From a virus (Duplodnaviria > Caudoviricetes), in IMG/VR virus record IMGVR_UViG_3300020045_006383, positions 1 through 35,424 of that record: a DNA stretch of 35,424 nucleotides. One strand, 5' to 3'. The position numbers were made by a program, and so were the translations under genes. Position 1 is the first letter of the stretch. The number at the start of each line of letters is the position of its first letter. The notes beneath the pieces are model-generated. The model was not told the origin of the DNA, ran no database searches, and saw only the letters and a list, made by a program, of their open reading frames with translations. This document shows positions 3,883-35,213 of the stretch, in pieces.

Positions 3883-6015
3883 ATGGCAGACGAGAAATTA
3901 GAAGTTGTAATCACCGCTGATGATAGAGCCTCCGGAGTCTTCGGGGGCTTAAGTGGTGTATTGGGCGGTCTCGGTTCAATGATCCTTGGTGGACTTGCCG
4001 CCGCCGCCGCGGCCGCTGGTGCGGCTATGTATGGTCTCGGGACAATTCTCAAAGACTCTGTGGGGGAAGCGATGGAGTCACAGAACGCAATTGCCCAGTT
4101 GGAAGCGGTACTCAAGTCCACTGGTGGAGAAGCCGGCGTCACGAAAGACGCGGTCTTAGAGCTTGCCAGTTCATTACAAAAAGTTACCCGTTATTCAGAC
4201 GAGCAGATCATCAGTGGTGAAAATCTGCTTTTGACCTTTACGAATATTGGGAAAGATATTTTTCCAGACGCTACTCAGGCAATGCTGGATATGTCCACCG
4301 CTTTGGGTCAGGATCTGTCTTCGAGCGCCATTCAACTCGGCAAAGCGTTGCAAGACCCGATCCTTGGTGTTACCGCGTTGCGCAGGGTCGGTGTAAATTT
4401 CTCAGATGCCCAGCGTGACATGATCAAGTCCATGGTGGAAGCCGGCGACATCATGGGAGCGCAAAAGTTCATCCTTGCTGAATTAACCAAAGAGTTCGGC
4501 GGTTCGGCAGTTGCGGCCGGGCAGACGTTTGCCGGCGCAATGGATATTCTCAAGAACCGTTTCAGCGAGGTCAAAGAAGAGTTGGGGATGAAGTTGATCC
4601 CGGTCATTACCAAGTTGATGAATGAGGTCATTGTCCCGTTGATCCCATACATCGAAGAGGCCGCTACCGCATTTGGTGATTTCCTTGTCCGGCTGTCAGA
4701 GTCGGATGAGTTCAAAGAGTTCATTGAGTTCGTCAGTGACGGTCTCAAGGGAATTATCCAGTTGTTTGAAGATATATCGAGCGGTCAGATCAGCATGCCT
4801 GCCATGCCTGACTTTACCGAGTTTGCAAACTTCCAACTCCCCGAGCTTCAGTGGAATATCGCCCCGATACCACTTCCAAACTTCAGTGAAGCCATTGATC
4901 CGATCCTTAATTTGCCGGAAGGTATCCCGGCTTTCTTTGATAACCTTGCTTTATGGTGGGAAGAGCATGGTCCTGTCATTAAACAGCAAGCCGAAGAATT
5001 GTGGGACGGATTTATGGTCGCCACAGACGACACAAGCTCCATTGTCAGCAAGTTTATAGACGACTCTCTTGTAAAAGTTACTGAATGGCTTAATGAAAAC
5101 GGTCCACTGATCGAGGAATTTGGTCAGTTGGTTGTTGATGTTTTTACCAGAACCGTCCTACCCTCCATTACAGTTTTTACCGACAACTTTTTCACCATGC
5201 TTACTGATGTTATGGATCTGCTTTTAGACCTTGGCACACTGGTCATGCAGGTCGCTACTGGTGACTGGGCGGGCGCGTGGGAGTCTATGAAATTAGTTGC
5301 AGTTGACGCCTTGACCATTGTCGGTGACTTCTTTATGGCTTTCCTTAATCATCTTGCGTCGTTCCTTGGCACTACGATGGATGAAGTTGTATCCCAGTGG
5401 ACTTACAATCTTGATCAAATGGCACAAGTAAATTTTCTTACGTTTACAGGCATCCTTGGAGTTATATTAGAAAATATTGACGGCATTAAGGGTGCGTTTA
5501 TGGACCTGTCCGAGTGGGTCGGGACGGAGTTCACCGCTATCTTTGAAGCGGTGGCAGAAAAGATGGATTCTTTCAGGAATCTGCTTTCTGAGCCACTCGA
5601 TCTTGGTATCTTTGAGGAGATCCGTGGAGTCTTTGATCGCATTGAAGGCGCGATCAGTTCCGTTATCGATTCGATCTGGAGTCTTGGTGACGCGTTTGTT
5701 TCGTTGGTCATTCCTGACTGGTTGACCCCCGGCTCCCCTACCCCGTTTGAGATCGGGTTGATCGGCGTCCAGAAGGCTCTACAAGGCGTAAATTCGGTAC
5801 CCTTCCCCACCTTCCCCGAAAGTAGTCCACTAAGCGCCTCTCCGTCGTCTGGTATATCAACGGCTGGCAGTTTTGGCGCTGGTCGCGCCCCCATTACCCT
5901 CAATTTCACCTATGCCCCGGCGGTATCTCTTGGTAGTGAGCGTGAGATGCGTGACCGCATTGCGCCGGTCATGGTGGATCTGTTGCGTGAAGCGCAAAAC
6001 AACGGGATCATCTAA
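3883..6015 (+). CDS. Tail tape measure protein
   Basis: 710 aa; LEVVITADDRAS N-terminus; AIQLGKALQDP..G.TAL.RVGV motif; helical Trp/Phe-periodic repeats; PGSP near the C-terminus. Confidence 0.93.
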   Translation: MADEKLEVVITADDRASGVFGGLSGVLGGLGSMILGGLAAAAAAAGAAMYGLGTILKDSVGEAMESQNAIAQLEAVLKSTGGEAGVTKDAVLELASSLQKVTRYSDEQIISGENLLLTFTNIGKDIFPDATQAMLDMSTALGQDLSSSAIQLGKALQDPILGVTALRRVGVNFSDAQRDMIKSMVEAGDIMGAQKFILAELTKEFGGSAVAAGQTFAGAMDILKNRFSEVKEELGMKLIPVITKLMNEVIVPLIPYIEEAATAFGDFLVRLSESDEFKEFIEFVSDGLKGIIQLFEDISSGQISMPAMPDFTEFANFQLPELQWNIAPIPLPNFSEAIDPILNLPEGIPAFFDNLALWWEEHGPVIKQQAEELWDGFMVATDDTSSIVSKFIDDSLVKVTEWLNENGPLIEEFGQLVVDVFTRTVLPSITVFTDNFFTMLTDVMDLLLDLGTLVMQVATGDWAGAWESMKLVAVDALTIVGDFFMAFLNHLASFLGTTMDEVVSQWTYNLDQMAQVNFLTFTGILGVILENIDGIKGAFMDLSEWVGTEFTAIFEAVAEKMDSFRNLLSEPLDLGIFEEIRGVFDRIEGAISSVIDSIWSLGDAFVSLVIPDWLTPGSPTPFEIGLIGVQKALQGVNSVPFPTFPESSPLSASPSSGISTAGSFGAGRAPITLNFTYAPAVSLGSEREMRDRIAPVMVDLLREAQNNGII

Positions 6016-7554: not shown

Positions 7555-8094
7555 ATGGAATCTCTTAATTACATTGTGACAGCCAGACACTACGCCCAGC
7601 AAATGGGTTGTAGTTCAACGCTTGAGCGCATTATGAAAATGCGCGAAATGGTTCAAGCCAAGAAGCGCACAGTCCTTCCTATGCAGGTTAACAAGTATGC
7701 GGTTGATCCTGTCCTTGGTTTTATCGAGAATGGTCAATGGATCGGTCGTTGTGAATGTGGTGGTTGTGAGTTTGTGGACCCGGACGAGCCGGTGTTTTAT
7801 TGTTTCAGTTGTTGTAACCGTGGTTATAACCACATGCTGAGACGCGTCAAGTTCCCTGATGTTTCAACCCGCATGGAGATCGAGCGTTTATTGCTTTTGC
7901 GCCCAGTGGATGATATGCGTGGACAGACAGACCTTGAAAGAGCCGGTCTTGCGCGCGCGTTGATCTTGGTTCAAGTGGATGAAAAAACGGTACTCCCCCT
8001 GACCCGCTCATGGAATCCAGATGAAAGTCTGGAAGTCTTGCGCTCCCAGCAGGACGACGCCATAAACAAGTGGAGTCAAAAGGTTGGTGGATAA
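7555..8094 (+). CDS. Cys-rich (putative Zn-binding) tail-region protein, paralog 1
   Basis: GQWIGRCECGGCEFVDPDEPVFYCFSCCN ... RSWNPDES; clear paralog of 10416-10898. Confidence 0.7.
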   Translation: MESLNYIVTARHYAQQMGCSSTLERIMKMREMVQAKKRTVLPMQVNKYAVDPVLGFIENGQWIGRCECGGCEFVDPDEPVFYCFSCCNRGYNHMLRRVKFPDVSTRMEIERLLLLRPVDDMRGQTDLERAGLARALILVQVDEKTVLPLTRSWNPDESLEVLRSQQDDAINKWSQKVGG

Positions 8095-8873
8095 TGAGCT
8101 TCACAACCATCCCTTCAGTTGTCACTGGACAAACGTACACAGCCGCTAATTACAACACGTATATAAAAGACAACCTCAATACTCTGTGGGTCTACACGAC
8201 CGCAGGTGACATCGCGTATGCAACGTCAGCAACCGTTTTGGCGCGTCTGGCTCTTGTGCAAGGCGGTATCTTGATCGGCGGGGCAAGCGCTCCGGAATGG
8301 CTGGCAATTGGGTCCACCGGTCAATACCTTGGAGTTACCGCTGGCGCTCCGGCGTGGAAGAGCGACGGAGTCCCCGGAGTTTTTACCGCCGCCGGCGATC
8401 TTGTGTACGGAACCGGTGTAGGCACAGCCGCTGTTTTGACTAAACCAAGCGCCACAAAATCATTGCAAATGACTTCTGGTGGAGTTCCTTCGTGGAGAAC
8501 ACTGACACAGTTTGTTGAGACAAATGTTGTAGCAGAGGCTACAGACGTAGATACGGCAAGTGGCGTCACTTATTTCCCGGTCCCCAGTATTTTTAACGGT
8601 TACGTTTTAATTAGAGCTATCGCCTTTGTGGCAACGGCCGGCGTCACTAATCCGACCACAATTCAAGTGAGAAACTTAACAAAGTATCCCAGTAATGACG
8701 CCCTATCCACAGCTATTAGTATTGCGTCTGGTGACACAGTAGCCACCGTGGGTACAGTGGACGCGTCTTATGACGATGTTGCTACGAATGATCAGATAAA
8801 GATTTATGTAACAGCCCAGTCCACAACAAAACCGAAAGGCTTGTGGGTAGTCTTGGAGTACGAGAAACCATAA
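8094..8873 (+). CDS. Tail fibre-like / minor tail protein, paralog A
   Basis: ATG at 8094 (TAATG overlap); internal T.AGD(I/L).Y...A.L repeats; full-length paralog of 8875-9660. Confidence 0.7.
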   Translation: MSFTTIPSVVTGQTYTAANYNTYIKDNLNTLWVYTTAGDIAYATSATVLARLALVQGGILIGGASAPEWLAIGSTGQYLGVTAGAPAWKSDGVPGVFTAAGDLVYGTGVGTAAVLTKPSATKSLQMTSGGVPSWRTLTQFVETNVVAEATDVDTASGVTYFPVPSIFNGYVLIRAIAFVATAGVTNPTTIQVRNLTKYPSNDALSTAISIASGDTVATVGTVDASYDDVATNDQIKIYVTAQSTTKPKGLWVVLEYEKP

Positions 8874-8874
8874 A

Positions 8875-9660
8875 ATGTCGTTTACTATCGTTCCATCAGT
8901 CGTCACTGGACAGCAATACACAGCGTCAGAGCATAATACCTATGCGCGTAATTCTCTGTTGTCTCTGTGGGTCTACACAACCGTTGGTGATCTTGTTTAC
9001 GCTTCTGATTCGACTAATATTGCACGTTTGGCAAATGTCGCAAATAACATTTTGATTGGTGGAGCAAGCGCGCCGCAATGGCTGGCAGTTGGGTCCGCAG
9101 GTCAATACGTCGGAGTTACCGCCGGCGCTCCCGCATGGAAGAGTGATGGAGTCCCCGGAATATTTACAACCGTTGGTGATCTTGTCTATGGCAGTAGTGC
9201 AGGCGCGGCTAGTCGATTGGCAAAACCTAGCTCATTAAATTTTCTTTCAGAGGCTTCAAACGGGACTCCGGCGTGGAGGGCGCTGAAAATATCGGCTCTT
9301 ATTCAAGTCGTTGCTCCCACAACTGACGTTTCAATGGACTCAAGCGCGCGTTTTTACGTTCCTTCAATTTGTAATGGTTCTAATGTTTCAGCGTCCGGAT
9401 GGGTTGTGACTGCCGGGGTTGGATATCCGAATAATGTACAGATTCATAATTTAACAAAGTATCCAAACAATACCTTGTTTCCTCCCGGTAGTGGAATTGA
9501 GATAGGCAGTGGACAAACGAAGCAGACTACGTTCTATTCAGTGGATTCGAGTTATGATGATGTGTCCACGAATGACGTAATTGATATTTACATGGTGTCC
9601 CTTAGTAACACTACCGCCCCGAAAGGTTTGTGGGTTGAGTTAGTGTTTACACTTGTGTAA
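8875..9660 (+). CDS. Tail fibre-like / minor tail protein, paralog B
   Basis: Shares MSFT..PSVVTGQ.YTA, GVTAGAPAWKSDGVPG, NLTKYP, YDDV.TND and PKGLWV with paralog A. Confidence 0.7.
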   Translation: MSFTIVPSVVTGQQYTASEHNTYARNSLLSLWVYTTVGDLVYASDSTNIARLANVANNILIGGASAPQWLAVGSAGQYVGVTAGAPAWKSDGVPGIFTTVGDLVYGSSAGAASRLAKPSSLNFLSEASNGTPAWRALKISALIQVVAPTTDVSMDSSARFYVPSICNGSNVSASGWVVTAGVGYPNNVQIHNLTKYPNNTLFPPGSGIEIGSGQTKQTTFYSVDSSYDDVSTNDVIDIYMVSLSNTTAPKGLWVELVFTLV

Positions 9661-13006: not shown

Positions 13007-13300
13007 ATGTTTACCGGTAGCCGTGTTCCGATTGTGGATTATCTTTTAGACCCGCTTTTCATAGCGCTGGTGCTTTACATTGCCGCGTTCATCAAAGTCT
13101 ACAAGAAGCAATATGAGCACGGTCTCACTCGTTTTATCGGCGGACTCTGGTTTACTTATGTCTGGTTCAACCCGCATGTGGATACGATCACGCTTAGAGT
13201 TATGGGTCGTTGGTTATTTGCCCTGCCGTTCTTTACCGAGATACTGTCCATAATATTCAGGACCATCCCGCACAACAGGCAGAGTAAATATGACAAATGA
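13007..13300 (+). CDS. Small multi-pass membrane protein
   Basis: Two to three hydrophobic segments; tightly packed in the operon. Confidence 0.6.
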   Translation: MFTGSRVPIVDYLLDPLFIALVLYIAAFIKVYKKQYEHGLTRFIGGLWFTYVWFNPHVDTITLRVMGRWLFALPFFTEILSIIFRTIPHNRQSKYDK

Positions 13301-13595
13301 GCAGATGATCTTTATCGGAACACTCTTGACCATTCTGGCAACGTACCTTACCAATCGCGCCAGTGGTCTTAATCAGACGATCAATACCCTGTCCGAAACC
13401 ATTGTCACTCTGCGTGGAGAGATAAACGCAGAAAGGACTGCGCGTCAGGATGCCGAAGAAGAGTACCAAAAAAAACTCCGAGAAATGTCCAATAAATTTG
13501 AAGACGAGCGCAATCGCTACCGGCGCTATATTACCCAGCTGATCAAGCAGTTGAATGACAATAAAATCGTCCCCTATGAGTGGGACGTAGATTAA
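13290..13595 (+). CDS. Membrane-anchored coiled-coil protein (holin/lysis accessory-like)
   Basis: One N-terminal TM helix followed by a charged coiled coil; lysis position. Confidence 0.6.
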   Translation: MTNEQMIFIGTLLTILATYLTNRASGLNQTINTLSETIVTLRGEINAERTARQDAEEEYQKKLREMSNKFEDERNRYRRYITQLIKQLNDNKIVPYEWDVD

Positions 13596-13611
13596 TATAA
13601 GGAGAAATAAA

Positions 13612-14004
13612 ATGAAATCACGTACCAGAATGTTTGTGTTTTTGTCCGTAATTGTGCTCGCTTTGCTGGCTGTTACCCCTGCACTTGCCTTTCAGGGTGA
13701 GACTCAGCCTCCGACCATCGAACAGTTCCCATTACTGGAGCAGTTGCTGGTGGCTGGGATCGGTTTTGTTGTTGCCCTTGGGATCAAGTCCATTGCTCTT
13801 GAGTTCGGGATTGACTTGAAGGATAAAGCCATGTCCCTGACCGGCACGCTTTCCATTGCCGCGATTGCCTTTGTTAATCAACTATTGGCGAAAGTCCCGC
13901 CCGAGTATTATGGTGTAACGGTCTCTGTGCTGGGTTTGCTTGTCTCGATCCTGATGGCTTTCGGCTTTGCCGGGTTGGTCAAGAAACTTCAGAAAAGAGT
14001 GTAA
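13612..14004 (+). CDS. Putative holin-like membrane protein
   Basis: AAGGAG RBS; signal-peptide-like N-terminus (..ALA-FQ), about 3 TM helices and a basic tail KKLQKRV; last gene before the terminator. Confidence 0.55.
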   Translation: MKSRTRMFVFLSVIVLALLAVTPALAFQGETQPPTIEQFPLLEQLLVAGIGFVVALGIKSIALEFGIDLKDKAMSLTGTLSIAAIAFVNQLLAKVPPEYYGVTVSVLGLLVSILMAFGFAGLVKKLQKRV

Positions 14005-14009
14005 AAACG

Positions 14010-14042
14010 AAAAGAGCCGGATCTGGCAGATCCGGCTCTTTT
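14010..14042. terminator. Bidirectional intrinsic terminator
   Basis: Perfect 15-bp inverted repeat AAAAGAGCCGGATCT-ggc-AGATCCGGCTCTTTT just after the late operon. Confidence 0.9.
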
Positions 14043-14239
14043 AACTTGGACAATGTAGACAGGTACTACTCTCGCCTCGCTGTCTAGTGTCAACTTAATT
14101 ATAGCGTGTTTTGGGTGAATTATCAGGCTCATTCCGTGAACACTCCGGAGTATTCAGGTAGCCTTCGGAGCACTTAAACTACTCTATACTATATTAAACT
14201 TCTTTTAACTCATTAACCGTGTTGATCTAAAATTCGGTA

Positions 14240-14268
14240 TTGACAGTTGATTTGATCCGTTGTATATT
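14240..14268 (+). promoter_or_regulatory. sigma70-type promoter
   Basis: TTGACA (14240-14245), 17-bp spacer, TATATT (14263-14268). Confidence 0.75.
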
Positions 14269-14273
14269 AAGCG

Positions 14274-14379
14274 TGGCGGTGTTGGGTGCCCCCCTCACCC
14301 TACCCCGCCATTTTCCTCGATACCCTATTTTTTTTGATAGAAATGCCCGAGCCTCGCATAGCTTGGGCATTTCGCTTTT
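14274..14379 (+). ncRNA. Candidate ~105-nt small RNA or attenuated leader
   Basis: Starts just after the promoter; hairpin TGGCGG..GGGTG-CCCCCCT-CACCC..CCGCCA; ends in the terminator-like stem GAAATGCCCGAGC/GCTTGGGCATTTC plus GCTTTT; no ORF. Confidence 0.5.
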
Positions 14380-14615
14380 AAGTTGTTTCCTGATCTAGTT
14401 GTAGTTGAAGTAGGCGGTCAGTGTAGACCCCGAATCAACCAGACATACAGTTACCCGACTCTTGCTGGTAAAGCCGTGGTGAAAAGCACCGAATTAAAAA
14501 AGCATGTAGGCAAATGAAGGCATTGAAACTGTCATAGTTGCCATATCACCAATCCCGACGTAGCCCGTACACGCAGTAGGTCCCTGTCTGGCAATGAAAC
14601 GAAAACCAAAGCACG

Positions 14616-14712
14616 AACCTTGCAGTTACCTTAAAGAACCCTGAACCCCTTGACTTTGGTATACACACCTGATAAAATCCCACTATCAAATCAAATAGGA
14701 GCAGATCATGAA
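14616..14712 (+). repeat. 97-bp direct repeat, copy 1 (promoter + RBS + ATG unit)
   Basis: 89/97 identical to 20470-20566; TTGACT (14650)-17-TAAAAT (14673) with extended TG, AGGAG RBS, ATG at 14708. Confidence 0.95.
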
Positions 14713-15316
14713 CGAAGAAATTGTTCAAGCAATTATGGCTACCGTAAGAGAGTCAACCAAAGACTCCGGCTTAACCGACGCCGCGCTTGAGAAAGTTGAA
14801 GCCGGTGTAAGGTCCTATGTTTCAGTTCGTTGTTTTTCCATTTTGGAAGATTGGGACGTTCTGGATCGCGCATCTTCTCTCGGCATCCCTATGAGCAGAA
14901 AAGAAGCCCTGTCTATACTGGGATACATCGAAGAAAAGCAGGATTTTAATCGCGGCATTACGTTCGAGGAATTGGAGTCGAAGATCGAAGACTGGTACGA
15001 CAAACAGGCGTGGATGCACAAGACTATTTCAGAGTTGAGAGAGTACGAAACAGCCACGTACATCATGCGCGCCGGAAGCGAAGACGAAGGCGAGTACCGG
15101 GTTCTATTCGATGTCATGCTTGACTTCGCGGCTTTCCAAGCCAGTGAATGGTTTGCGAATTTTGGAAACACGGTCACAGTAGTTTGTGTCCCGTATGGCG
15201 AACACCAAGACCTTGATCTAGACACCGAGTTCAAATCTAAAATGGGGCGTGAATGGATCACCCAGCTATTCAAAGATAGCAAGGAAATATTCGAGTTCAA
15301 GGAAAATCCATCATGA
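14708..15316 (+). CDS. Hypothetical acidic early protein
   Basis: Has its own promoter and AGGAG RBS; 202 aa. Confidence 0.75.
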   Translation: MNEEIVQAIMATVRESTKDSGLTDAALEKVEAGVRSYVSVRCFSILEDWDVLDRASSLGIPMSRKEALSILGYIEEKQDFNRGITFEELESKIEDWYDKQAWMHKTISELREYETATYIMRAGSEDEGEYRVLFDVMLDFAAFQASEWFANFGNTVTVVCVPYGEHQDLDLDTEFKSKMGREWITQLFKDSKEIFEFKENPS

Positions 15317-15408
15317 ATCCGGCTATTCTGGTTTGTATTCCGTCCTGTATATTTCTCGTAGTTGTTATTACGATCTTGGCTATGTTGGCAGAGATCAAGG
15401 AGCATTAG
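15313..15408 (+). CDS. 31-aa single-TM peptide (MNPAILVCIPSCIFLVVVITILAMLAEIKEH)
   Basis: ATGA overlap with the upstream gene, fills the gap to the next ATG at 15410; below the ORF-track cutoff. Confidence 0.6.
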   Translation: MNPAILVCIPSCIFLVVVITILAMLAEIKEH

Positions 15409-15409
15409 T

Positions 15410-16126
15410 ATGGAAAGTAGTTTTGTCCAAGGTGTCCCGCGTGGTTGTGGAAATCGCAAGCAAGGCGGTGTGTATGCGGAGTGTGGAAGTTCAAGAGAGG
15501 GTAAGCCTGTTGAGAGTTTCCTGCTTTGCCCTCCGATCCCGGTTGATCCAAAAGAGTTTGGAATTACCGCAGTCGGCGTCAAGTTGATCGAGGGTATGGT
15601 TTGGGACTGGGTCGGCTCCCAGTATTACCAGAACGTCACAGACTTCATCGAAGAAGTCCGCAGGTTTGGCATGAGCCGACGTTTGCCAAAGACGTTTGAT
15701 TTTCAGTCCCTGATCCCCACGTCAAGAATGTTCCTGCTTCACTCTCGCGCACATATCGAGAACCCTACCCCATATCATTCCAGTCGTTTGGGCGGTAAGG
15801 TGTTTGATATGAAGTGGGATTGGTGCCCTACAGGTCGCCACGATCACACCGAGAAGGGTATGTGTGCCGGTTTGTGGTGGGAAGATATTGTGAAGGATGG
15901 TCTCACGCTCAATGACGATCAAGAGCGCGTCGGTGTGGTTGACATGCCGGCATTCAGTTATCTGGCGGCTGAGACCCCGATAGAGAATGCAGAGCACACT
16001 CTGGCAATCTTCGCATCCTTCCCCATTCAACGTCTGGCGGTTATCCGCGCAGAAGACGGATCTCACAACGAGACGGCTGATCGAGCGTCAGCGTCCGCTA
16101 TTCCAGTCGAGGTGGTAGATGAGTAA
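15410..16126 (+). CDS. Hypothetical phage protein (RGCG.RK.GG.Y motif, Cys/His-containing)
   Basis: AAGGAG RBS before ATG at 15410. Confidence 0.7.
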   Translation: MESSFVQGVPRGCGNRKQGGVYAECGSSREGKPVESFLLCPPIPVDPKEFGITAVGVKLIEGMVWDWVGSQYYQNVTDFIEEVRRFGMSRRLPKTFDFQSLIPTSRMFLLHSRAHIENPTPYHSSRLGGKVFDMKWDWCPTGRHDHTEKGMCAGLWWEDIVKDGLTLNDDQERVGVVDMPAFSYLAAETPIENAEHTLAIFASFPIQRLAVIRAEDGSHNETADRASASAIPVEVVDE

Positions 16127-16659
16127 GACAAAACAGTTACCCAGCTTGTTTCCCGATGTAGTCCCAGTAGATACCGCGCTGGATGTCGAAGTGGATTTGA
16201 TCTACGTAAATGATTACGTTGTTGATCCCACACCTGAATTTATTGAAAGCGTCCGGCGCTTCGGTATCATTCAGCCGGTATTGCTGGTGCGTGATGGTGG
16301 CAAAGCCTTTAAGGTTCTGGCTGGGCGTCGCAGAGTCTTATCCGCCAAAGCGCTCGGTATGGTCACGATCAAAGCGATTGTCCGCGAAGGTCTGTCTTAC
16401 GCAGATGCGCGCGCAAGCGCCTTGACCATCGAAGCGCAGAAGCAGTTCAATGAAAACCCGGTCGCAGAATTACGGGCGATCCAGTCCCTGATAAAAGACG
16501 GCTATCAAAAAGAAGAGATCATGTCAGCGCTGGGATTGTCCAGTGAGCGTATTGATAAGCTCTTGAAACTTGGCTCATTGCCGGAAGACATGCTGGACGC
16601 GGTCCAGAGTCGGAAGTTGGGCGGCTCTCGCTCAACACAATCACGAAAGGAAAATAATC

Positions 16660-16881
16660 ATGTTGTATTTCATCAAAGGCGATAGCCCCGCAAATTGGGG
16701 AGCAATGAAATTGAAGTTGACCAAAGGCGCGTCACCATCTGCCGTCATTGCTGGCATGGAAAAAGACGGTTGGAAATGCGTCACAGTTTCCGCGTTCAAT
16801 GCGTGGCGTAAGCAGAACAGCCGCCCAACATTGCATGCACCCGACGCCGCTAATGCTGCGGATGAATTGGCATTATTCTAA
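16660..16881 (+). CDS. Cassette-borne hypothetical protein (73 aa)
   Basis: AAAGGA RBS, ATG at 16660 (MLYFIKGDSPANWGAMK...); reads into the attC (RPTLHAPDAA) and stops in its central loop. Confidence 0.75.
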   Translation: MLYFIKGDSPANWGAMKLKLTKGASPSAVIAGMEKDGWKCVTVSAFNAWRKQNSRPTLHAPDAANAADELALF

Positions 16882-16908
16882 AAATCGCGGCGCGGGTAAT
16901 GCCCGCCG
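16823..16908 (+). other. attC recombination site (92 bp in the circular cassette form)
   Basis: R'' GCCCAAC (16823-16829); left arm GCAT[G]CACCCG[A]CGCCGC pairs with right arm GCGGCG-CGGGTA-ATGC, leaving two extrahelical bases; inner stem TAATGC/GCATTA; terminal G at 16908. AGCCGCCCAAC is the perfect reverse complement of GTTGGGCGGCT at 16616-16626. Confidence 0.88.
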
Positions 16909-17203
16909 GTAGCCATGTCCACGGCTCAGACGCTGTCAAAGATGTCGGAGCCGTATCAAAAGAAAGCCATTAAACATTTTGAGCAGGCAGGCAAGTTGAC
17001 CGGCACAGACCTTTCCGAGATCAAGACCGCGCAAAAGAAATCGTCCGTTCAGGATGTGATGAAGGCGATGGAAGTCAGCAAGTCCCACGCTCCCACCTTA
17101 TCCGATCAGGTTGCGCAGTTGTACAAGAACGACACCAAGAGCGACTCTGGTTATGATAGCGGCTGGAACGATGCGCTTAAAGAAGTCCTTAAACTTCTAT
17201 CTT

Positions 17204-17260
17204 GATATATACAGTAAATCAATTTTATGCTATACTAAAAAACAAGGAGATATATACAGT
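17204..17260 (+). promoter_or_regulatory. Promoter of the RHH gene flanked by a 12-bp direct repeat (candidate operators)
   Basis: Extended -10 TGcTATACT (17228-17236); GATATATACAGT at 17204-17215 and 17249-17260. Confidence 0.6.
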
Positions 17261-17519
17261 GAAAAACAAAACCCCAAAGATCAAGCGTACACGTTATCCA
17301 ATCTTTCCCATGCGTTTGCGTCCAGACGACCGCGCGGCCAGTCAGGCAGTTATTGACACATACGGTCTCAGCGCCATGAGTGATAGTTTCCGCATAGGCG
17401 TCCGGGTCCTGCAAATGCTCAGTCTCACCCCTGAAAAGTTGCGCAAGTTGAATGAGCAGTTTGAGTCCCAGCACCCCGACTCGCTCAAGATCCAGATCCC
17501 CGACTCTTCCAAGCAATAA
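17259..17519 (+). CDS. Ribbon-helix-helix (Arc/CopG-like) DNA-binding protein
   Basis: AAGGAG RBS before GTG at 17259; basic N-terminus, then strand IFPMRL, helix RPDDRAASQAVI, turn YG, helix SDSFRIGV. Confidence 0.65.
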   Translation: MKNKTPKIKRTRYPIFPMRLRPDDRAASQAVIDTYGLSAMSDSFRIGVRVLQMLSLTPEKLRKLNEQFESQHPDSLKIQIPDSSKQ

Positions 17520-17572
17520 AATAGCTCCGTTGTCTCGCTGAAGACGAGAAACGGAGCCTGTAAGGAAGAGTA
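17515..17572 (-). ncRNA. Candidate ~58-nt antisense small RNA
   Basis: Downstream of a minus-strand consensus promoter; hairpin 17524-17557 (GCTCCGTT.TCTCG/CGAGA.AACGGAGC) followed on the minus strand by UAUUUUAUU. Confidence 0.65.
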
Positions 17573-17577
17573 AAATA

Positions 17578-17606
17578 AGTATAGCGTAAGGAAGAGCCGA
17601 TGTCAA
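17578..17606 (-). promoter_or_regulatory. Antisense sigma70-type promoter
   Basis: Minus strand TTGACA (complement of 17601-17606), 17-bp spacer, TATACT (complement of 17578-17583). Confidence 0.75.
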
Positions 17607-20323: not shown

Positions 20324-20526
20324 GCAAAGAAGAGCTTAAGCAGGCATTTGAATGGTGCCAAAAGAACGGCAACGCAGAGGATTGGGATTTACTGGCGATT
20401 GCCTATTACTCAGCCGGGTATCTTATGAACGCGCTGGCATATTTCAAGAAGGCGGATGAAATGCGCGCCAACCTTGCCGTCACCTTAAAGAACCCTGAGC
20501 CCCTTGACGTTGGTATATACACCTGA
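20320..20526 (+). CDS. Small TPR-like helical protein
   Basis: AEDWDLLAIAYYSAGYLMNALAYFKKA resembles a single TPR; its C-terminus is encoded by repeat copy 2. Confidence 0.55.
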   Translation: MSKEELKQAFEWCQKNGNAEDWDLLAIAYYSAGYLMNALAYFKKADEMRANLAVTLKNPEPLDVGIYT

Positions 20527-20566
20527 TAAAATCACCTTATCAAATCAAATAGGAGCAGATCATGAA
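20470..20566 (+). repeat. 97-bp direct repeat, copy 2 (promoter + RBS + ATG unit)
   Basis: TTGACG (20504)-17-TAAAAT (20527), AGGAG RBS, ATG at 20562; 8 mismatches versus copy 1. Confidence 0.95.
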
Positions 20567-20990
20567 TAAAGGTTTTATGAAAGGTCAGTTGATCGAACAC
20601 AATTTTAGCAAGGAAATAGGCGAAGTTCTTGGACCTTCCCCATTTTCCAATATGGTGCAGGTCAAGATCAGCGGCACCGATCAGGTTGAAAGCTGGGAGA
20701 TACGCAACTCCACTTCATTCCTGCCAGACGAGCAGGATGAGAATATCTTGTTTTTCCAGAACGAGTTGACCAAGATCGTGAATGGCGAGTTCCAGTCAGT
20801 CACCCGCATTGAGGAAAGCGATCAATCAGAAGTGGTTATCACCTTCAAAGATCGCCCCGATCTCAATATGGCGCGTAATGTAGATCAAGCGATTCAGCGT
20901 CAGTTCGGCGTTTCTTGGAAAATGTGGCTTCACACGCACAGTGGAATTTACGAATTGCATGTTTTGTATTGGGAGGATCGCCATGAGTGA
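20562..20990 (+). CDS. Hypothetical protein
   Basis: Promoter and RBS supplied by repeat copy 2; 142 aa. Confidence 0.7.
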   Translation: MNKGFMKGQLIEHNFSKEIGEVLGPSPFSNMVQVKISGTDQVESWEIRNSTSFLPDEQDENILFFQNELTKIVNGEFQSVTRIEESDQSEVVITFKDRPDLNMARNVDQAIQRQFGVSWKMWLHTHSGIYELHVLYWEDRHE

Positions 20991-26185: not shown

Positions 26186-28012
26186 ATGCTTAAGAGATTG
26201 CGCGACGCCATTACCCCACCCAGTCAACGCACACCATCCGCAGAAGAAATAGCCAGAGAAATTGTTCACTTGTCAGCCATGAAGGTGTCGGAGGTTGTGC
26301 CAACATGGAAGGAAGGCAAGCCAGTAGAGCCGTCAACGAATTTTGTTTCTTTAGTGAAGGGCGGATGGCGCAGGAATGAGTTGATCTTCGCTTGCTCGTC
26401 ACGCAAGGCAAGTACGGCGAGTCAGGTTGCCTTAAAGGTTCACAAGAAAGTAAGTGGGGACGAAGTGCCGAATCATCCATTACGAGAGTTGATAAAATTT
26501 CCAAACCCGCGTATGAGTGAGTTTGATTTCCTATCATCCATTTTCATATTTCAGGATTTTGGCGGGATTGCTTATTATGAAAAAGTCCGATCCAGAGCCG
26601 GCAAAGTGGTGCAGTTGTGGCCCATGCGCCCGGACTGGGTGAGACCATTACCGTCAAGTAAGAGTTACGTAGCTGGTTACGAATACGGACCTCCCGGAGA
26701 AAAGAAAGAAATTCTCCCAGCGGAGGACGTGTTGAGTTTTCCATTGTGGGACCCGCTAGATGAGTATCGTGGGTTTCCACCTGTGGCAGTTGCGGCCAGA
26801 GTCGCGGATGTGGATAACTCGATCACGGACTACATCCGCTTGATGTTTCAAGAGGGTGGTGTTCCGCCCGGTCTACTGAAGACCAAGCAAGCCATTGATG
26901 ATGCCATAGCGATTCGTATGCGCGAGAAGTGGAAAGAGCGTTATGGTGGCGTCGGCAATTGGTTGGAGCCGGCAGTTCTCGGGTACGATCTTGAGTATCA
27001 GCAGATCGGTCTCGGTCTCAAAGAGATGGGTCTGGAAATGCTGGACAAGCGCAACGAAACGCGCATCTGTATGGTCATGAAGGTCCCGCCGACCATGATC
27101 AGCACGCTCGTTGGTTTGGAGCGCGCGATCTTATCCAATGCGCAGGAGTTTCAGAAGGACTGGTGGGTCAATGATTTGATCCCCATGTATAAGAACCTGA
27201 ACGACAATTTCCAGAATCAGCTTGTCAAGCCTGATTTTGGGGATGATGTTGAGTTGAAGTGGGACTTCCATGACGTGCCTGCTTTGATCAATATGTACAA
27301 GGACAAAAAAGAAGCGGCTCTTAATGCGTTTCAAGCCGGAGCGATCACACGTAATCAATACCTCGCTGAGTGTGGTCTGCCTGAATTGGGTCCACGTGGG
27401 GAAGTGTTCGTGATGTCCATGTCCATGCAGGAAGTACCAGCCAATAAGATACTTGTTCCGCGTCCGATCTTCACGTCCAAGCCGGTTGCAGAAACCCCAA
27501 AGGAAGACGAAGACGGCAAGACAGAGCCAAAAAGTATGAAGGCTATTGTTAAGTCGGAAGTGGTTGCCGGCAATGCTCCCGATAATGAAGAGCGCTTGAA
27601 AGCAGAGAAGCTCATGGCGCGTAAGTTGCGTGATTTCTTTTCCGATGAGTTGTCTCGTATCCGTAGTAGCGTTACCGCTTCACACCGTCCACTTGTGAAG
27701 GAAGACCCACCCACATTCAACCTTACCGTTCACAACCATCCCGGCGATGCTCCGCGTGTAGATGTTGAAGAGTTACGCGGAGAGTTGACCGCTCTTAAAC
27801 AGGACGCTCCCACGATCATAGTTAATGTTGAGCCTACACCTGTGTCGGTTGCGAATAACAACGTGATTCAGGTCCCTGAGAACCCGCCGGCTGAGATCAC
27901 ATTCTCCCCCGAGGTGAACGTGGTTACTCCGAAGGCAAAGAAAGAGCGCCAGACGATCAAGCGCGACCATGAAGGTAATATCGCCAGCACAGAAACAGAT
28001 ATAGAGTATTAA
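26186..28012 (+). CDS. HK97-family portal protein with a long C-terminal extension
   Basis: HPL..L...PNP.MS, GIAYYEK, LWPMRPD.V, GG.PPG.L, IC.V.KVPP, GAITRNQY...GLP; about 190 extra C-terminal residues. Confidence 0.95.
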   Translation: MLKRLRDAITPPSQRTPSAEEIAREIVHLSAMKVSEVVPTWKEGKPVEPSTNFVSLVKGGWRRNELIFACSSRKASTASQVALKVHKKVSGDEVPNHPLRELIKFPNPRMSEFDFLSSIFIFQDFGGIAYYEKVRSRAGKVVQLWPMRPDWVRPLPSSKSYVAGYEYGPPGEKKEILPAEDVLSFPLWDPLDEYRGFPPVAVAARVADVDNSITDYIRLMFQEGGVPPGLLKTKQAIDDAIAIRMREKWKERYGGVGNWLEPAVLGYDLEYQQIGLGLKEMGLEMLDKRNETRICMVMKVPPTMISTLVGLERAILSNAQEFQKDWWVNDLIPMYKNLNDNFQNQLVKPDFGDDVELKWDFHDVPALINMYKDKKEAALNAFQAGAITRNQYLAECGLPELGPRGEVFVMSMSMQEVPANKILVPRPIFTSKPVAETPKEDEDGKTEPKSMKAIVKSEVVAGNAPDNEERLKAEKLMARKLRDFFSDELSRIRSSVTASHRPLVKEDPPTFNLTVHNHPGDAPRVDVEELRGELTALKQDAPTIIVNVEPTPVSVANNNVIQVPENPPAEITFSPEVNVVTPKAKKERQTIKRDHEGNIASTETDIEY

Positions 28013-33913: not shown

Positions 33914-34168
33914 ATGGCGAAAGTTCCTAATAACAAGTTGCTCATTGCCGGCTTGAGAAGTCTTATCAAGCCAATTGCTTTTGACGCGAACCTGTACGAT
34001 CTCGGTCTTGCAAACTATCCACACGCTCAGCATTGCTCAGAGAAGCGCAAGAAGTTGAATGAAGAGATAGTCCGGCTGGGTGGGGTACCGAAGCCGCTCC
34101 CGTTCCAGAAGAAAGAGCCAGTAGTAGAAGTAGATCAGCCTAGTTCGCAGTTGTCCTTATTTGAATAG
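33914..34168 (+). CDS. Hypothetical protein with a C-terminal QLSLF beta-clamp-binding-like motif
   Basis: 84 aa, ends SSQLSLFE. Confidence 0.6.
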   Translation: MAKVPNNKLLIAGLRSLIKPIAFDANLYDLGLANYPHAQHCSEKRKKLNEEIVRLGGVPKPLPFQKKEPVVEVDQPSSQLSLFE

Positions 34169-34191
34169 TGGGGAAGCGCTAAAATTGGGTA

Positions 34192-34220
34192 TTGACAGCG
34201 CGGTAGTGATAAGATATATT
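34192..34220 (+). promoter_or_regulatory. Promoter of the recombinase gene
   Basis: TTGACA (34192-34197)-17-TATATT (34215-34220). Confidence 0.75.
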
Positions 34221-34229
34221 ATCGCTACT
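34202..34229. other. dif-like 28-bp tyrosine-recombinase site (11-6-11)
   Basis: GGTAGTGATAA-GATATA-TTATCGCTACT; the arms are inverted repeats (9/11) with inner ATAA/TTAT as in E. coli dif; ends at the base before the recombinase ATG. Confidence 0.75.
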
Positions 34230-35213
34230 ATGACAAAAGCGATAGCCACTTTCGATCAAGCAGTTTCAGCGTTTTTAGATAACCTCGCTGGCAATACGAA
34301 GAAAGCATACCAGTACGACTTACGCAACGAGTCGTCTGGTTTTCTTTTTGTCATGGAGTCTTATGGGGTGAAATCCACTACCCCGATCAGTCAGTTGAAT
34401 GAGCGCCATGGTGTCCAGTGGGTTCAGTGGATGTGGAAGCAGTTCAACAAGTCCACCATCCAGCGCCGTCTGTCAGCGTTCAAGAATTTCATGCGCTACT
34501 GCAAGTTTGCCTATGATGTCAATGTCAGCGTCGAGCAGTTCTCAGAGATATTGAAGTCAGCGAAGTTGCAACCCAAAGTAAAGAATCGTCGGATAATTCC
34601 GATGGAAAAGATCGAGAGAGTTGTGACTTACTCACTCTCACCCGCCTACGATCAGTCTGACGAGTTCGATAAGTTACGTGCTTTACGAGATCGAGCGTTT
34701 ATTGTTTGTCTGGCTGATTCTGGACTTCGAGTAAGTGAGGCGTGTTCTCTCACGCGTGGCGACTTGACCCATGAATACAAGTACGCGGCTGTGATCGGTA
34801 AGGGCGGTAAAGTCGGTGTGGTTCGGTTCTCTACTCGGGCAATCAAACACATCCAGTCCTACCTTAAGGCACGTGGGAAGTTCGATGGTGCGCTTGGGGT
34901 GCCATTGGCGACCCTTCCATTGTTCGCAAACACTACCATCAAGAAGTGTAGGAAGATCGGCTCACAGACAGGTAGAAAGATAGTGGATCAGATGGCTCGG
35001 TCTGCCCTCGGTCCTGATTATATTGACGGTGAGATCTCGCCCCATTCATTGCGTCATTATTTTGTAATGATTGCCCTCGAAAACACTGGCGGTGATATCA
35101 AGAAGGTCAAAGAGCTTGCTCGGCACGAGTCTATTGTCACAACCGAGTTGTATTCTCAAGTCTCGAATGTCGTGCTTAACAAATCGTATGATGATATTTT
35201 TAACAGGGATTAG
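34230..35213 (+). CDS. XerC/D-like tyrosine recombinase (integrase/resolvase)
   Basis: RDRA...LADSGLRVSEA (R), GKGGK (K), SPHSLRH (HxxR), RHESIVTTELY (H, Y); SAM-like N-domain (NTKKAY..DL, STIQRRLSAFKNF). ATG at 34230 preferred because the promoter lies inside the longer ORF call. Confidence 0.93.
   Translation: MTKAIATFDQAVSAFLDNLAGNTKKAYQYDLRNESSGFLFVMESYGVKSTTPISQLNERHGVQWVQWMWKQFNKSTIQRRLSAFKNFMRYCKFAYDVNVSVEQFSEILKSAKLQPKVKNRRIIPMEKIERVVTYSLSPAYDQSDEFDKLRALRDRAFIVCLADSGLRVSEACSLTRGDLTHEYKYAAVIGKGGKVGVVRFSTRAIKHIQSYLKARGKFDGALGVPLATLPLFANTTIKKCRKIGSQTGRKIVDQMARSALGPDYIDGEISPHSLRHYFVMIALENTGGDIKKVKELARHESIVTTELYSQVSNVVLNKSYDDIFNRD

Follow-up and report, generated by a model that had tools for sequence, protein, structure and literature searches.

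The parB-like gene of the phage analyzed here is cut in two by 292 bp. What is this insert, how did it enter the gene, where did it come from, and what are the consequences for the phage? The DNA examined (the window, record G000) is a whole viral record of 35,424 bases, classed as linear and 70% complete (CheckV). It carries tail, terminase, portal, replication, and integrase genes, and the phage is likely temperate. No tRNA was found by ARAGORN. The tail region contains adjacent genes of 267 and 261 aa (8070–9660) with a common 183-nt repeat (78% identical), whose copies lie 781 nt apart and represent a tandem duplication.

The parB-like gene starts at position 16119 on the plus strand, is broken after codon 166 (AAG, 16614–16616), and continues from 16909. 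Its 5′ part (16119–16616, 166 codons) encodes a ParB_N domain (Pfam, 36.6 bits, over the cut-off) and the start of a helix-turn-helix (HTH) domain, the HTH_ParB profile being matched over positions 4–57 of 102; TIGR00180 also scores over its cut-off. The 3′ part (16909–17205, 98 codons) is 41–86% identical to the residues from the junction onward in six homologs. Once rejoined, the two halves form 264 codons with no internal stop and specify a ParB-type protein with N-terminal and HTH domains. Searches with the 5′ half retrieved 11 relatives, one of them the 188-aa product of the window itself; eight of the remaining ten were compared with both halves. In six of these eight, the protein is continuous across the junction, residue 166 adjoining residue 1 of the 3′ half (162|163 in P0002), and the other two, more distant, aligned with the 5′ half only. 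The uninterrupted allele is present in a related phage (L001, the same record as G015), colinear with the window on both sides at 76–79% nucleotide identity and devoid of exactly 292 bp: window positions 16607–16913 face L001 positions 5471–5485, and the empty site reads RK-VS. The reconstruction of a split 264-aa ParB proposed in the initial annotation is therefore borne out by the relatives. The insertion is present in one record and absent from all six close ParB homologs, and the event looks recent. Since the dN/dS values of the two halves (0.089 and 0.066, no stops) are like those of four neighboring genes (0.054–0.196), the gene appears to have been under selection and free of decay, within the limits of a single pairwise comparison that cannot detect very recent relaxation. 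A partition role of this gene is unproven, because profile PF13614 matched no ParA partner in the window or in G015, both of which are incomplete (70% and 47%). A 238-aa gene (15410–16126) that overlaps the start of parB is 91% identical in L001 with a dN/dS of 0.054, has no match in Pfam, PHROGs, or the Atlas, and is a possible ParB partner.

The insert itself (16617–16908, plus strand) has the organization of an integron gene cassette. Its junctions read ...CGGAAG^TTGGGC on the left and ...CCCGCCG^GTAGCC on the right. At the left junction (16616–16622), the target G and the TTGGGC of the cassette form a canonical G^TT core whose flank is parB coding sequence. A leader with a ribosome-binding site (RBS; 16617–16659) follows, in which no promoter-like site was found. 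The 3′ end is an attC site (16823–16914) of 86 bp, counted from the R″ box GCCCAAC (16823) to the terminal G at 16908, with paired arms (GCAT/ATGC, ACCCG/CGGGT, and CGCCGC/GCGGCG) and two extrahelical bases, a G and a T on the bottom strand, which we take to be the canonical ones. The R′ box is now GGTAGCC, taken from the target, and an A faces the G at its second position. In a simulated circle junction, GCCCAAC and G^TTGGGC pair at 7/7 positions, as had been claimed from the sequence, and the left junction is the only exact complement of R″ within 1.6 kb upstream of the attC.

To search for such sites, we built a covariance model, R1, from 17 attC sites of other cassettes, the window site being left out. 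Run against the window with filters off, it returned one attC match in 35,424 bases, at 16823–16914, with 61 bits (E = 1.8e-14), the next best among the six matches listed having 9.2 bits. R1 flags one non-standard pair, the A facing the second G of GGT, and found no match in G015, the empty-site relative. The sites of the model covary: 96.4% of 306 cells are paired and 10 of the 18 pairs are altered on both sides, against 20–37% paired in slid-partner controls, a result favored by the fact that the structure was set by eye from the same 17 sequences. Rfam gave no match in the window, and the attC of the window is missed by design in a regular-expression finder that requires GTT. The resemblance to aadA-type sites suggested in the initial annotation found no support at the sequence level in blastn searches of 72,556 plasmids and 50,697 phages, which gave no match.

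Copies of the cassette 96% identical to that of the window occur in two metagenome contigs, L002 and L003, at the first position of rows. The L003 copy (282/294 identical) has exactly the same two boundaries and ends at the equivalent of 16908, where a G^TT and three more attC sites follow; the L002 copy (271/282 identical) shares the exact left boundary, and the contig ends inside the attC. As all three copies differ pairwise by 11–12 bases, the phage copy is not more diverged than the others. These contexts also bear on a trivial explanation, the joining of a cassette contig into a phage contig during assembly. The insertion is indeed known from a single metagenomic record; however, the identity of its flanks with the donor contexts is limited to 2 nt on the left and 0 nt on the right, much shorter than a k-mer misjoin would require, and both breaks fall exactly on the boundaries set independently by L003. 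A chimera is thus hardly credible. The first 21 nt of the leader (G 16616 included) also form the start of cassettes in 12 viral contigs, eight of which gave training sites for R1. An attC lies directly upstream in 11 of the 12 (the twelfth contig begins only 4 bases 5′ of the match) and a different ORF follows in 11 (one ends 24 bases in); these contigs were picked by the motif and thus give no measure of prevalence. A near-identical attC with a different ORF is present in viral contig L042.

The insert thus combines complementarity of R″ and the cassette start, an imperfect palindrome with extrahelical bases, and the same boundaries in different contexts, and we are practically certain that it is a real cassette insertion. 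With its single attC and one CDS, and no other att site or integron integrase nearby (in a contig that is 70% complete), it corresponds to a SALIN; there is neither an intI with an attI, as in a complete integron, nor the two or more attC sites of a CALIN. By analogy with characterized sites, recombination of this attC by IntI as a folded bottom strand is predicted.

The cassette ORF (16660–16881, plus strand, 73 codons) is preceded by a purine-rich RBS, so both had been correctly recognized. The protein is less simple than first described: because the ORF runs through the attC (overlap 16823–16881), its last ∼19 residues are attC read-through. Among 17 homologs, a core of ∼54 residues is common and most sequences diverge from the motif RPT, which is encoded by the attC R″ box. 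The predicted structure comprises a beta-beta-alpha-beta-alpha core and a low-confidence tail read from the attC (AlphaFold2 pLDDT 82–91 at residues 1–50, below 50 at 57–68 and 70–73). Homologs P0012–P0035 have homologous cores with differing attC-encoded tails, that of P0018 containing cysteine pairs. The core shows 8–10 differences between copies, mostly silent (dN/dS 0.11–0.15, from low counts). No match was found in Pfam, PHROGs, NCBIfam, or the ESM Atlas, and Foldseek gave none at E ≤ 0.001 in the PDB or BFVD. The best VIA-align match, 2ra8_A (Z 4.2, rmsd 2.6, 50 aligned residues), is within the range of common arrangements. No family or fold could be assigned to the protein. As a weak guess, the product could be a small accessory module binding nucleic acid or protein. 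None of 10 candidate stretches in other viral contigs contained the ORF, and a pattern-based scan of 185,579 species genomes, which can miss homologs, revealed no convincing one; its sole hit among 47 candidate stretches (L006; 21 residues, E = 4e-4) was dropped as probably spurious. In L004 (144–260), a cassette homolog has a different attC, after which come G^TTAGATT and a run of genes, helicase-like ones among them, without any additional attC; this homolog may close a row of cassettes in another mobile element.

How did the cassette enter parB? No target duplication of 2–11 bp was found, in agreement with the initial annotation. The crossover triplet is GGT, whereas the consensus for genomic insertions by IntI1–3 (attG) is GWT (bioRxiv 10.1101/2022.09.11.507474); the CRGM hotspot at positions 6–9 after the crossover reads CATG here. 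The parB target functions like an attG but lies outside the GWT consensus. We considered a canonical target masked by later mutation and rejected it, as it would need one base lost on the left and one gained on the right, and L003 fixes a single terminal G. Available measurements indicate that GGT is usable: GNT is the minimal motif, only the first G having to match and the second base being tolerant (PMC10127599; PMC2811028), and a wild-type attC recombines with an attI1 carrying GGT at 0.96 of wild type (PMC2811028, Table 4). Nevertheless, given the GWT consensus and the G^TT found in 14 of the 15 other attC right ends listed, entry at GGT appears permitted but atypical. In viral contig G009, of two sites at 13363–13486 and 27345–27451, one is a lone weak attC-like site 3′ of a phage integrase gene, with no matching cassette start, and the other has an attC right end reading GTA instead of GTT. 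We conclude that an IntI-type enzyme very likely inserted the cassette off-target, into a secondary GGT site and co-oriented with the early operon, as had been proposed.

The proposed course of events starts from two observations, a unit bounded exactly like the copies in rows and an empty site that exists in a relative. The excised circle, with its bottom strand folded so that GCCCAAC pairs with GTTGGGC, would then have undergone recombination at a G^GT of the double-stranded phage DNA, as IntI chemistry predicts. No target duplication would be expected, because one shared G is the only homology needed.

Which enzyme was responsible? The only tyrosine recombinase found in the window (34161–35213) is XerC/phage-Int-like; its gene is located at the contig end, beyond the head and neck genes, is immediately preceded by a promoter-like sequence, and has five other relatives at E ≤ 1e-60 (45–63% identity). 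Against the integron-integrase model it scores 43 bits for a cut-off of 265, its C-terminal stretch alone being matched, so the statement that the window has no intI holds and this recombinase is unlikely to be the inserting enzyme. An intI could sit in the missing DNA, as the contig is 70% complete. As the contig itself has none, the enzyme would have acted in trans, supplied by the host or by a co-resident phage with its own intI.

The same integron-integrase model was run on 15 records, 14 with arrays plus the empty-site relative. Three matched, none over the cut-off, and the match was full-length in G008 alone (204 bits, the best NCBIfam family for this IntI-type protein), so that most array records must borrow their integrase. 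In G008 (13278–17583; L036), this divergent gene lies directly 5′ of seven attC sites and is co-oriented with them; a pattern search found no relative of its product in other viral contigs. A second case is the tailed GenBank phage Rctr41k (KX853513.1; L039, 4680–10101), whose IntI, annotated as xerD, scores 383 bits, over the TIGR02249 cut-off, and is 31% identical to that of G008. Its gene is co-oriented with and followed by six attC sites of the same family as that of the window, and the cassettes include methyltransferase-like genes. Our literature search found no paper mentioning Rctr41k, and a term search of the main tables and supplement of PMC9892861 found neither its name nor KX853513.

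The donor contexts also involve phages. In L002 and L003, the cassette is preceded by a conserved attI-like site, TGTACATT..CTCAAACA..AG^TT. Sites of the TGTACATT type head 10 of 18 other array starts examined, with differing first cassettes. Of the remaining starts, four show an A-rich G^TT site related to this type, two immediately follow an IntI-type gene, one is likely the continuation of a row across the terminal repeat of G013, and one is without assignment. No adjacent intI was seen where the attI-like site heads rows in G003, G004, G009 (twice), G011, G013 (twice), G014, L002, and L003. Four of six matches to the motif (L019–L021 and L023) lack a following G^TT and were dropped as chance. 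The DNA 5′ of the attI-like site in L002 matches viral contigs G014, G004, and G011, and that in L003 matches G003; the same small gene precedes the site in L002, G014, G004, and G011. G008, G010, and G013 are tailed phages with terminase and head genes, as judged from 55 of their 102 ORFs of at least 150 aa, and G013 has terminal repeats and is 100% complete. The window phage and G010 have common helicase-loader (33%) and small-terminase (42%) homologs.

Is the parB site itself an attI of this kind? Compared with a profile of 13 array-start sites, its left flank scores −5.8 and ranks 1088 among 16,918 G positions, whereas the seven TGTACATT-type sites, each scored with a profile from which it had been left out, reach 21.6–30.4. 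However, 5 of the 13 sites, all of other types, also score below zero when left out, so the profile excludes only the common attI type, and the claim that the window has no attI stands to that extent.

The initial annotation attributed the delivery to a host integron integrase. The IntI-type insertion is supported and the enzyme could be that of the host, but sources other than a host integron must be considered, since the closest copies are in phage-type rows and two phages have their own IntI-type gene. One can envisage the same chemistry with both cassette and enzyme coming from a host chromosomal integron, probably during a prophage stage. Many chromosomal sites are targets of cassette insertion by IntI1–3, and 3400 SALINs have been counted in bacterial genomes (bioRxiv 10.1101/2022.09.11.507474); the window phage, with its XerC-like recombinase, is likely temperate; and the scarcity of IntI-type genes among the array records, only G008 having a full-length one, would oblige most of them to use an enzyme supplied by another element. 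On the other hand, the nearest copies lie behind a phage-associated attI-like site, and the genome scan yielded only the one weak 21-residue match. We give this host route a distinct minority of our confidence. The donor was on balance probably phage-borne, and the likely origin of the cassette is a pool shared by phages that infect the same hosts. Against this view, the phage context of the cassette comes from no more than two short metagenome contigs (L002 and L003) and their upstream genes.

What did the insertion do to the phage? The 5′ parB frame reads through 22 codons of the cassette to a stop at 16685 (ORF list); full-length ParB is predicted to be lost, the 188-aa product keeping the N-terminal domain and part of the HTH. 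The 3′ part has an in-frame ATG at 16915 with a weak ribosome-binding match (duplex energy −3.0 kcal/mol, vs. −5.6 to −8.7 at four other starts). A promoter-consensus scan gave 12 sites, against 4.3 ± 2.3 in shuffled sequences. One of them (14650–14678) lies 5′ of the gene run containing parB, and two overlapping 9-of-12 matches, which are consensus matches only, are found directly after parB (17202–17236, plus strand). On this basis the cassette gene is predicted to be read from the early transcript. The sites at 17202–17236 would drive the downstream genes independently, and the replication genes were likely spared, because parB is the last gene of its run and promoter-like sites follow it. 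A 107-nt direct repeat (14611–14717 and 20465–20571, 89% identical) is located 5′ of two early gene runs; its first copy contains the 14650–14678 site, and similar segments occur at both places in L001.

Two functional readings had been attached to the loss of ParB. The first is a reversible switch, in which integrase-driven excision under stress restores ParB and alters the phage lifestyle. Precise excision would restore the frame, both halves are intact, and excision at the insertion point has been seen for some genome-inserted cassettes, at a notable level in 2 of 24 clones picked (bioRxiv 10.1101/2022.09.11.507474). Against this, the R box of the attC in situ pairs at only 4/7 positions, the mismatch lying inside the triplet (G-G-T facing A-A-C), and the R helix is absent from the predicted in-situ fold (−19.0/−19.4 vs. 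−24.5/−25.4 kcal/mol). An attC-aadA7 unpaired at position 2 recombines at 6e-6 instead of 2.2e-3, about 370-fold less (PMC2811028). This penalty, like the GGT tolerance, was measured with IntI1, attI1, and attC-aadA7, not with the enzyme of this family. Furthermore, none of the six close homologs has the insertion, and the intact halves are equally explained by recency. We consider a switch quite improbable. By analogy with the unpaired attC-aadA7, the cassette is probably largely trapped, and excision is predicted to be rare because the new attC is mismatched in the middle of its cleavage triplet.

The second reading is a host defense in which the integrase knocks out phage genes through cassette insertion. 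Although the gene truncated by the insertion had been under purifying selection, this is a single event, a short motif is the only targeting apparent in published genomic insertions (bioRxiv 10.1101/2022.09.11.507474), and the gene hit is the last of its run, with promoter-like sites after it. In addition, comparison of the 17 alignment members of the cassette protein with the PADLOC models gave no match. No evidence for an anti-phage hit emerged, and we regard defense as very improbable. On present evidence, the locus does not reveal a new regulatory switch or defense system; most likely, the event is a tolerated accident in a temperate phage.

Taken together, we propose with good confidence that a lone cassette splits parB, that it was likely inserted off-target by an outside integrase and likely derives from a phage cassette pool, and that it should now be largely trapped. 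More speculatively, these phages may share a cassette economy built on a conserved attI-like site without an integrase, on small cassettes of phage type, and on the few phages that supply IntI in trans, the window being a snapshot of a platform-less phage joining the pool; we hold this extension to be less likely than not. If it is true, an off-target hit would leave the cassette with a locked attC at its right end; at its left end, the hit would create a new canonical G^TT under the control of an early promoter, and additional cassettes could accumulate there into a new array.

Off-target cassette insertion and phage-borne attC sites have both been published (bioRxiv 10.1101/2022.09.11.507474; PMC9892861), so that the capture of cassettes by phages, as claimed from the sequence, was already reported in 2023 (PMC9892861). 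Off-target insertion has so far been known mainly from laboratory Escherichia coli and inferred from lone attC sites. What is new here is a clean natural case with both the empty site and a donor context in view: the gene is interrupted, a relative has the empty allele, and the cassette is also found elsewhere at a primary site, which makes this an unusually complete example. It widens the off-target range to phage genes and to the GGT triplet, and it suggests a testable rule, that targets with a second base other than T admit cassettes but leave them locked. It also indicates phage-to-phage cassette traffic, including a complete integron in a GenBank phage, Rctr41k, annotated only as xerD. 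In a literature searched largely without subscription journals, no description of a phage or prophage gene interrupted by a lone cassette was found; the search on phage integrons returned PMC9892861 and reviews, the matches listed for the Chloroflexota contained nothing on this cassette family, and a term search of the accessible text of PMC5099504 did not find "integron."

Compared with known systems, the insert resembles the SALIN/attG insertions (bioRxiv 10.1101/2022.09.11.507474): a single CDS is associated with a single attC, neither an intI nor another att site lies in the vicinity, the unit is inserted precisely after a G within a gene, and its promoterless gene comes under a resident transcript. 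It differs from those in its GGT instead of GWT triplet and in its phage gene target; in addition, it arose in nature, and both a relative with the empty site and the donor contexts are in view. In the main text of that study, the terms "prophage" and "GGT" do not occur. Like phage integrons and CALINs (PMC9892861), in which phages carry recombination-type attC sites and cassettes mostly without intI, it places a cassette on a phage, but the CALINs of that study have at least two attC sites, and its accessible text describes no lone cassette interrupting a phage gene. Finally, it agrees with the work on IntI1 tolerance (PMC2811028; PMC10127599), in which GGT served as an efficient double-stranded partner. 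Whereas those experiments used an engineered attI1 and attC-aadA7 with IntI1, the partner here is ordinary phage coding DNA.
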